Positions 9,786 to 11,239 of a stretch of 64,000 nucleotides of DNA are shown here, in pieces. Source of the DNA: Escherichia phage vB_ECOLIGBLB0003; sequence record PV654517. One strand, written 5' to 3'. Below the pieces are notes generated by a model. That model saw only the letters and a list, made by a program, of their open reading frames with translations. It was not told the origin of the DNA and searched no databases. Made by a program: the position numbers and the translations under genes. Numbering within the stretch: position 1 is the first letter of the stretch; each line of letters begins with the position of its first letter.

Positions 9786-10259
9786 TTATTTGAATGATTT
9801 AACGTACTGAATAGAACCTTTACTATTCACGAAAGCGATTTTACCATTTTTATTATACATGGTAGCAGTACGCTGATAGCCATAAGTTTGTTTACCAGAT
9901 TGATAACCAACTAATGCAAAATTATCTTCGCCCATTTTATTCTGCTTAGCGCGGATACGTTCATGACCATGCGCCATAAGAACCTTAGCGTCGCCAGTTG
10001 CAATGGATCTACGAGTTTTTTCATCTTCAACTGTATTAACAAAGTCGTCAAATGAATCAAATTTAGCGTGAGATTTATTATACAGTTTTCCATCTACTGC
10101 ATAATTATATCCCTGTACATCCATCTCAACTTCTGTACCATCATCTAATACAGCAGTGATTTTTTGACCTTTTTTAAATTTCAAAAGATCAGTAAAAGAT
10201 TCAGCAATAATTTGAGAATTAATAGCTGCTTCAGTAATAAATTCTTGATATGTTTTCAT
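9786..10259 (-). CDS. internal-protein-like protein with capsid targeting sequence
   Basis: 157 aa; N-terminus MKTYQEFITEA matches the T4 internal-protein capsid targeting sequence cleaved by gp21. Confidence 0.55.
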   Translation of the reverse strand: MKTYQEFITEAAINSQIIAESFTDLLKFKKGQKITAVLDDGTEVEMDVQGYNYAVDGKLYNKSHAKFDSFDDFVNTVEDEKTRRSIATGDAKVLMAHGHERIRAKQNKMGEDNFALVGYQSGKQTYGYQRTATMYNKNGKIAFVNSKGSIQYVKSFK

Positions 10260-10268
10260 ATGTTTCCT

Positions 10269-10685
10269 TTAAATGTAAATATTTTTACCGTAGTATTTAT
10301 ACCAGTGTGGTTTCATTAAAATTTTTTCATCAAGTCGTTGTTGACTCAATTTAATAGCTGATTTGCATGGATTATAATCATTTTTCCATTCTACTGGAAT
10401 ATCGCTGATGTCAGGAACTTCAGTATCTTTTATACTAAACCCACGTTTTAAGCATTCCGTTATAATGTCTGATTGACGCTTTCGTAAAAATTCTAACTTA
10501 TCATAAAAGAACGTAACATGACCAGAACCTAAAATAAACTCGGAAGATATTTTAAAATCTTTAACCCGCTTACCATTTGCCACGTGTTTACGAACTATAC
10601 CAAAAACGCGTGGCAATTCACGGTATTCTGCGATTAAATGTTGATCAGCAAGTTCAGATACTAAAGTCAAATTAATACGAGTCAT
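10269..10685 (-). CDS. denV: endonuclease V (pyrimidine-dimer DNA glycosylase)
   Basis: 138 aa; [17 protein letters not shown]...WYKYYGK aligns along its whole length with recalled T4 DenV at roughly three-quarters identity. Confidence 0.85.
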
Positions 10686-10704
10686 TTTATCCCTCCAAGT
10701 AACT

Positions 10705-10740
10705 GTGAATATACTATCACAATTCTAGGAGAAAGTAAAC
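10705..10740 (-). promoter_or_regulatory. T4-type early promoter between denV and e
   Basis: Minus strand GTTTAC-N17-(A)TAGTAT; small palindrome TGTGA...TCACA over the -10. Confidence 0.4.
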
Positions 10741-10744
10741 AACT

Positions 10745-11239
10745 TTATAGATTTTTATACGCGTCCCACGTACCAGTTCTAAACGTGGCAATGACTCGTT
10801 TTGCGCGATTAGGTGTTTGATTATACCATCTACTTTTAGCTAAGTTAACTGCTGCTTCATCCCAGCGTTTTTGCTGGAGCATGCGTAAAGAATTAGTAAA
10901 TCCTGCTACGCCGGTTTCCCCCATTTGGAAGACCATGTTAATCAATGCACAGCGGCGAACAGCATCAAGAGAATCATAAACCGGTTTTAATTTAGCATTT
11001 CTCAGAATTCCGCGAACAGCAGCATCAACATCCTGATTAAAGAGTTTTTCAGCCTCATCTTTTGTAATTACACCATTGCAATTACGCCCAATAGCTTTAT
11101 CTAATTCAGATTTAGCAACATTTAGTGATGGACTTTTAGTAAGCAAATGACCAATGCCAATAGTGTAATAACCTTCTGTGTCTTTATAGATTTTAAGTCT
11201 AAGACCTTCATCTATACGTAACATTTCAAATATATTCAT
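10745..11239 (-). CDS. e: lysozyme (endolysin)
   Basis: 164 aa; near-identical to recalled T4 lysozyme ([35 protein letters not shown]...). Confidence 0.95.

Follow-up and report, generated by a model that had tools for sequence, protein, structure and literature searches.

Assignment of the 157-codon gene next to denV in Escherichia phage vB_ECOLIGBLB0003 to ip4, an internal head protein gene in a mosaic locus of T-even phages

In Escherichia phage vB_ECOLIGBLB0003, the lysozyme gene e and denV are immediate neighbours, and a gene for a 157-residue protein with a capsid targeting sequence is located on the far side of denV. This layout raises the question whether the locus is rearranged and its protein novel, as the original prediction proposed, or whether gene and gene order are known from other phages. 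The window, the stretch of 64,000 nucleotides analysed here (sequence record PV654517), was therefore compared with T4 and with other phage records. According to the ORF list, the genes follow each other on the minus strand in the order nudE (11276-11731, also matched by the NUDIX profile), e (10745-11239, Phage_lysozyme profile), a spacer of exactly 59 bp by sequence comparison (10686-10744), denV (10269-10685, endonuclease V, identified by Pfam Pyr_excise and PHROG 1183), and the 157-codon gene (9786-10259). The predicted coordinates of e, denV, the spacer and the 157-codon gene were all correct. The next gene is a homologue of vs.8 (9091-9785, minus strand; ORF list and blastn). It anchors the Ip locus on the downstream side, while e, specifying a product of 164 residues of which 161 are identical to T4 lysozyme, is the fixed anchor upstream. 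In T4, ipII and ipIII are located between denV and e, as the original prediction stated; the reference sequence NC_000866 reads e, ipIII, ipII, denV, vs.8. The reference order differs from that of the window, and the difference in gene order to T4 is thus confirmed.

Blastn comparison with T4 showed where this difference begins and ends. The window is about 95% identical to T4 up to position 9774 and again from 10696, and the segment from 9775 to 10695 stands in for denV-ipII-ipIII of T4 (L001 2944-4454). The denV gene within this segment is a divergent allele. Its nucleotide identity to T4 denV is 77% over 10396-10689, and 107 of the 138 residues of its product (77.5%) are identical, whereas the flanking genes reach 95-98%. 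Judged from these identities, the difference to T4 is a replacement of a cassette at 9775-10695 carrying a divergent denV allele, and not a transposed T4 denV. The 157-codon gene occupies the slot between e and vs.8, which is where T4 has ipII and ipIII. Relocation of ipII or ipIII to another place in the window was also considered and rejected, a sequence search having detected no homologues of mature IPI, IPII or IPIII across the 64-kb window. The catalytic N-terminus of the denV product (T2, R3, R22, E23, R26) is intact.

By its sequence, the 157-codon gene is ip4 (ipIV), which is known by name from T-even phages and specifies the precursor of an internal head protein. In tblastn searches, its product was 100% identical to ipIV of T2, ipIV of Yersinia phage PST, and Ip4 of RB32. 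Ip4 of K3 (UniProt Q38388, 'Ip4 [Enterobacteria phage K3]') was 99% identical and represented the sole neighbour in the viral structure library. Residues 1-157 matched Pfam DUF7412 with E=5.7e-96, scoring 319 bits where 27 are required, and a match to PHROG 3155, annotated as 'internal virion protein', had E=6e-102. With identical proteins in T2, RB32 and PST and with Pfam and PHROG families of its own, the protein can no longer be regarded as novel; gene, name, targeting sequence and plasticity of the locus are already known from databases and literature. The Ip4/ipIV proteins of T2, K3, RB32, RB51 and PST match the protein of the window along its full length of 157 residues, with 99% or 100% identity, and their genes are likewise located next to vs.8. 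The sole difference in neighbourhood is the denV cassette between e and ip4 in the window; T2 has no cassette at this position and PST has ipIII.

Among 50,697 phage records searched by tblastn, Ip4 was present in 470, in 290 of them with at least 99% identity and in about 306 with at least 95%. Both ipII and ipIII, as arranged in T4, were detected in only 78 records. T4 therefore represents a minority type (about 306 records with Ip4 against 78 with ipII and ipIII), and Ip4 is the commonest internal protein among sequenced T-even phages.

Comparison of the gene orders revealed a mosaic of cassettes. The order e-denV-ip4-vs.8 of the window is also that of phage BW-1. T2 has e-ip4, an arrangement that corresponds to the window minus 10275-10695; blastn indicated that exactly this segment is missing in T2, which has no denV gene at all. 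The order is e-ipIII-ipIV-vs.8 in PST and e-ip4-ipIII in the Klebsiella Jiaodavirus Kpn6N. Variability of the locus has already been published: PST and T4 were noted to differ in internal proteins in five instances, which were linked to Repoila et al. 1994 (PMC4122927), and Repoila 1994 is also cited for it in PMC12373910. A junction query, 10150-10850, was covered at 80% or more in 268 records, and from an evenly spaced sample of this 268-record ranking the complete ip4-denV-e junction was estimated to occur in roughly 130-160 records. The arrangement is thus common among phages and not the peculiar rearrangement originally proposed.

An arrangement unique to this phage, or an artefact of assembly, was considered in this context. 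Such an explanation could draw on the sole record that is 100% identical to 9000-11800, PV654520.1, 'Pseudomonas phage vB_PSGBLB0006' with the host P. aeruginosa ATCC 9027, a label odd for a Tequatrovirus; the record comprises 142,418 bp. The contiguous vs.8-ip4-denV-e-nudE block was found, however, at 95-97% identity in many independent records of Escherichia, Shigella, Yersinia, Citrobacter and Salmonella phages, which refutes this explanation and leaves it with a practically negligible probability. Because of its host label and its short length, PV654520.1 is suspect as a record, and these features suggest that it is mislabelled, a contaminant or incomplete. The other close relatives, at 95-97%, are Tequatroviruses of Escherichia, Shigella and Yersinia with genomes of 164-170 kb.

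The borders of the cassette were inspected for signals. The e-denV spacer contains TTTACT-N17-TAGTAT within a hairpin of -18.3 kcal/mol (z -3.8), and its part next to e, 10696-10744, corresponds by homology to the initial portion of the e-ipIII spacer of T4. The ipIII-ipII and ipII-denV spacers of T4 are of a design alike to that of the e-denV spacer. In PST and T4, the consensus of PeSL, the combination of promoter and stem-loop in T4-type phages, is TTTACW-N17-TAYWAT (PMC4122927). Much as in the PeSL cassettes (Arbiol 2010; Comeau 2014), a putative promoter is placed in a stable hairpin where a cassette ends within a hyperplastic region, but the -10-like box TAGTAT has one mismatch to TAYWAT. 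The e-denV spacer can be described as a predicted early promoter within a PeSL-like stem-loop. The breakpoint at 10696 is located at the 3' foot of the hairpin, at most two bases from the last pair at 10694. From the positions of the breakpoints, we infer that cassettes may have been swapped by recombination at short shared sequences. Exchange would have occurred at the shared stretch of ip leader and targeting-sequence codons and at the promoter stem-loops, rather than by inversion or transposition in this phage.

The ip4 leader (10260-10287, minus strand), which includes the Shine-Dalgarno sequence AAGGA (10265-10269), fits this picture of shared stretches. The ip4 ATG is preceded by 28 nt that do not differ at all from the leader of T4 ipII, and blastn gave 96.7% identity over a stretch of 60 nt that runs from this leader 32 bases into the coding sequence, which makes a chance likeness untenable. 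In T2, the ipIV leader is of the T4 ipIII type instead. The leader overlaps the last codons of denV together with its stop codon (10269-10271), which in turn overlaps the Shine-Dalgarno sequence. A late-promoter motif, TATAAATA, was detected 34 nt upstream of the ip4 ATG (10294-10301, minus strand) within the W-Y-K-Y codons of denV; T4 denV is without a perfect motif of this kind. The motif has 25 matches in the window versus 10 expected by chance, and since that many chance matches have to be reckoned with, this single site is suggestive of a late promoter of ip4 but could itself be a chance match. Two further copies, at 11253-11260 and 11266-11273, precede e. According to these signals, early transcription of ip4 could result from read-through from the promoter stem-loop upstream of denV, and late transcription could start from the motif within the 3' end of denV. 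A search for a terminator downstream of ip4 found none. A non-coding RNA near ip4 was discarded as a candidate, Rfam yielding a single sub-threshold chance match.

The capsid targeting sequence is encoded by codons 1-10 (10230-10259, minus strand) and was evaluated by an alignment of the family and by the determinants described in PMC9026906. The N-terminus of Ip4, MKTYQEFITEA, agrees in nine of ten residues with the targeting sequence of T4 IPII and IPIII, MKTYQEFIAE, and ends in the processing site I-T-E|A. Mutagenesis of IPIII assigned targeting to residues at positions 4 and 7 and processing to residues at positions 8 and 10 (PMC9026906). Ip4 retains Y4 and F7 as well as I8 and E10, and M1, F7 and E10 are invariant or nearly so across the Ip4 family. 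The predicted targeting sequence is thus bona fide, all mapped residues being kept. Alignment with T4 ipII and ipIII, proposed along with it, gave a divided result: the leader and targeting stretch matches, but the mature parts show no detectable similarity.

A second conserved site follows in codons 11-20 (10200-10229, minus strand), which specify AAINSQIIAE, a linker predicted by AF2 to be disordered. Only two (L/I)-x-E motifs are present in Ip4, one in residues 8-10 (ITE|A) and one in 18-20 (IAE|S). E20, in an (I/L/M)-x-E|S context, is invariant in close homologues and nearly invariant once remote ones are added. In the AF2 model, which has a pLDDT of 83.8 and a pTM of 0.78 for the whole protein, residues 1-20 score 45-54 and later residues above 84, so that residues 21-157 are predicted with confidence to be a globular core. 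T4 IPI is cleaved after a leader of 19 residues that ends in ITE|A, which is comparable to the proposed propeptide of 20 residues in Ip4. From the motifs, the conservation of E20, the disorder of residues 1-20 and the IPI leader, we infer cleavage after E10 and probably also after E20. Either cut would yield a product of 137-147 residues with a computed mass of 15.5-16.5 kDa and a pI of 9.1-9.3, and mature Ip4 probably has 137 residues, as expected for a cut after E20.

In the proposed pathway, the Ip4 precursor would bind to the scaffolding core of the prohead via the targeting sequence of ten residues and would be cut by the prohead protease gp21 after E10, probably again after E20. The remaining globular protein of 137-147 residues, basic with a pI of about 9.2, would stay in the head with the DNA and would subsequently be injected. 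T4 IPI, or IPI*, the GmrSD inhibitor, represents the class of small packaged, processed and injected proteins to which Ip4 is likened. A literature search for virion proteomics or injection of Ip4 came up empty.

Searches with the mature part provided little indication of an activity. Structure searches gave no significant match to the fold, the profile search of the PDB had no match with an E-value under 0.06, and PADLOC gave nothing meaningful (E=0.086). Pfam offered DUF7412 only, and an enzyme or a known domain was therefore rejected along with these empty PADLOC and PDB searches. The same applies to a catalytic His/Glu motif (H97, H99, E111-D112) that is conserved in close homologues; an enzyme appears unlikely because these histidines and acidic residues are not kept in remote members of the family.

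By the sequence searches, the family is small and confined to phages; when all 1.84 billion cluster representatives were scanned, just five proteins reached E<=0.001. Close homologues with 61-82% identity are found in T4-like phages of Klebsiella (Jiaodavirus), Salmonella and Serratia; across Tequatrovirus, Jiaodavirus and the Salmonella and Serratia T4-like phages identity ranges from 61 to 100%. Three remote homologues (34-41% identity) bear another N-terminal leader, MNFEQFLNES or MNFKDFLNES. One of them, with 34% identity, is contained in a 381-kb uncultured phage contig, IMGVR_UViG_3300011242_000001 (L011 2822-4468). It adjoins two ORFs with the common leader MNFEQFLNE or MSFTNFLNE, and together these genes look like an internal-protein cluster with a different targeting sequence. 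Because the remote homologues have a different leader, in one case beside genes led in the same way, the DUF7412 core looks like an ancient cargo module, fitted in each case with the type of head-targeting leader that is in use in the phage concerned.

For the role of Ip4, published work on the T4 proteins offers the best lead. Ip1, Ip2 and Ip3 each inhibit a distinct GmrSD-type Type IV restriction enzyme, and a like inhibition has been proposed for all genes of both Ip loci (PMC12373910); IPIII is required for T4 to infect ECOR17 (PMC9391042). Ip4 shares with T4 IPII and IPIII the locus, a nearly identical leader RNA and the targeting sequence of ten residues, and it resembles them in being small, basic and equipped with an I-x-E|A processing site. 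The mature parts of IPII and IPIII, in contrast, have no detectable sequence similarity to Ip4, and in blastp comparisons of mature Ip4 with mature IPI, IPII and IPIII nothing was better than E=1.5. Known GmrSD targets are ECOR21 for Ip2 and ECOR17 for Ip3, but none for Ip4. Since Ip1 to Ip3 of T4 all inhibit GmrSD enzymes, an anti-restriction role is the best guess, and Ip4 would most likely act without catalysis, by stoichiometric inhibition of a host nuclease directed at DNA with glucosyl-hydroxymethylcytosine, as has been shown for T4 Ip1, Ip2 and Ip3. The complete account, ip4 in its usual slot with the proposed expression, processing, injection, inhibitor role and cassette origin, is considered very probable. 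For the part that makes Ip4 an injected inhibitor of some variant of modified-DNA nuclease, the chances by this analogy are put at a little below even. The original prediction called the protein a candidate for an injected anti-defence effector whose specificity is unknown, and this wording describes present knowledge fairly.

Several observations bear on this role and on its competitors. In the published panel, ip4-10 gave no reproducible inhibition of active GmrSD variants (PMC12373910), although the ip4 of that study may not be exactly this sequence, which the Silas 2025 supplements did not yield. The GmrSD enzymes of ECOR21 and ECOR17 both restrict T2 (PMC12373910), and since T2 encodes exactly this Ip4, Ip4 does not block these two enzymes. 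The conservation of Ip4 (61-100%) is also unusually high for an inhibitor in an arms race and counts against that role. Ip4 might then be mainly a structural or DNA-associated component of the core instead of a defence inhibitor, a basic protein that aids assembly of the prohead core or neutralises and organises the packaged DNA, as has been ascribed to T4 IPIII; we regard this as unlikely. Slightly less probable still, injected Ip4 might act as an effector not on GmrSD-type restriction but on another host system, be it another nuclease, an abortive-infection sensor or a target in host take-over. The outcome of the GmrSD panel would be in line with such an effector (PMC12373910), as would a fold unlike anything solved, a sequence unrelated to mature IPI, IPII and IPIII, and a wide conservation suggestive of a conserved target, and Alt demonstrates that cargo with a targeting sequence need not inhibit restriction (PMC9026906). 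On the other hand, all three characterised Ip proteins from the Ip loci hit GmrSD enzymes, the diversity of GmrSD far exceeds the 15 groups tested (PMC12373910), and no positive evidence points to any one target.

Ip4, with a fold that is peculiar to it, could be injected as an inhibitor of a conserved, so far unrecognised enterobacterial defence, either a GmrSD subtype beyond the 15 groups of the published panel or a different system; we consider this conceivable, with somewhat more speaking against it than for it. If true, it would explain why no other Ip cargo is as widespread and as well conserved as Ip4, which is kept in Tequatrovirus, Jiaodavirus and the Salmonella and Serratia T4-like phages, with remote copies under another leader as in the 381-kb phage. 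Because Ip1 to Ip3 of T4 each disarm a different Type IV restriction enzyme, Ip4 is an obvious next candidate, which is of relevance when the host range of therapeutic Tequatroviruses is to be predicted.

Some features of neighbouring genes were also noted. Two more genes with capsid-targeting leaders, at 18105-18338 and 18415-18672 on the minus strand, specify a 77-residue protein starting with MKTYQEFIAET (PHROG 8111) and an 85-residue protein starting with MKTFKEFATKTTITES, an IPI-type leader (PHROG 3499); presumably, these two genes make up the second Ip locus, where T4 has ipI. The vs.8 homologue is broken by an in-frame TAG after codon 33, resulting in ORFs of 33 codons (9643-9744) and 180 codons (9091-9633) on the minus strand, the latter beginning at an internal ATG, while T4 vs.8 is a single ORF of 219 codons. 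Compared to T4, a 9-nt deletion has removed one copy of the CTTATAGAG repeat, and a T-to-G change is present in addition. The annotation of phage BW-1 also has the short form of vs.8. Finally, the e.2 homologue (11713-12201, minus strand) is an ORF of 162 codons that overlaps the start of nudE, as annotated in BW-1, whereas T4 e.2 is annotated with 102 codons and a gap of 161 nt before nudE, although the DNA is about 95% identical.
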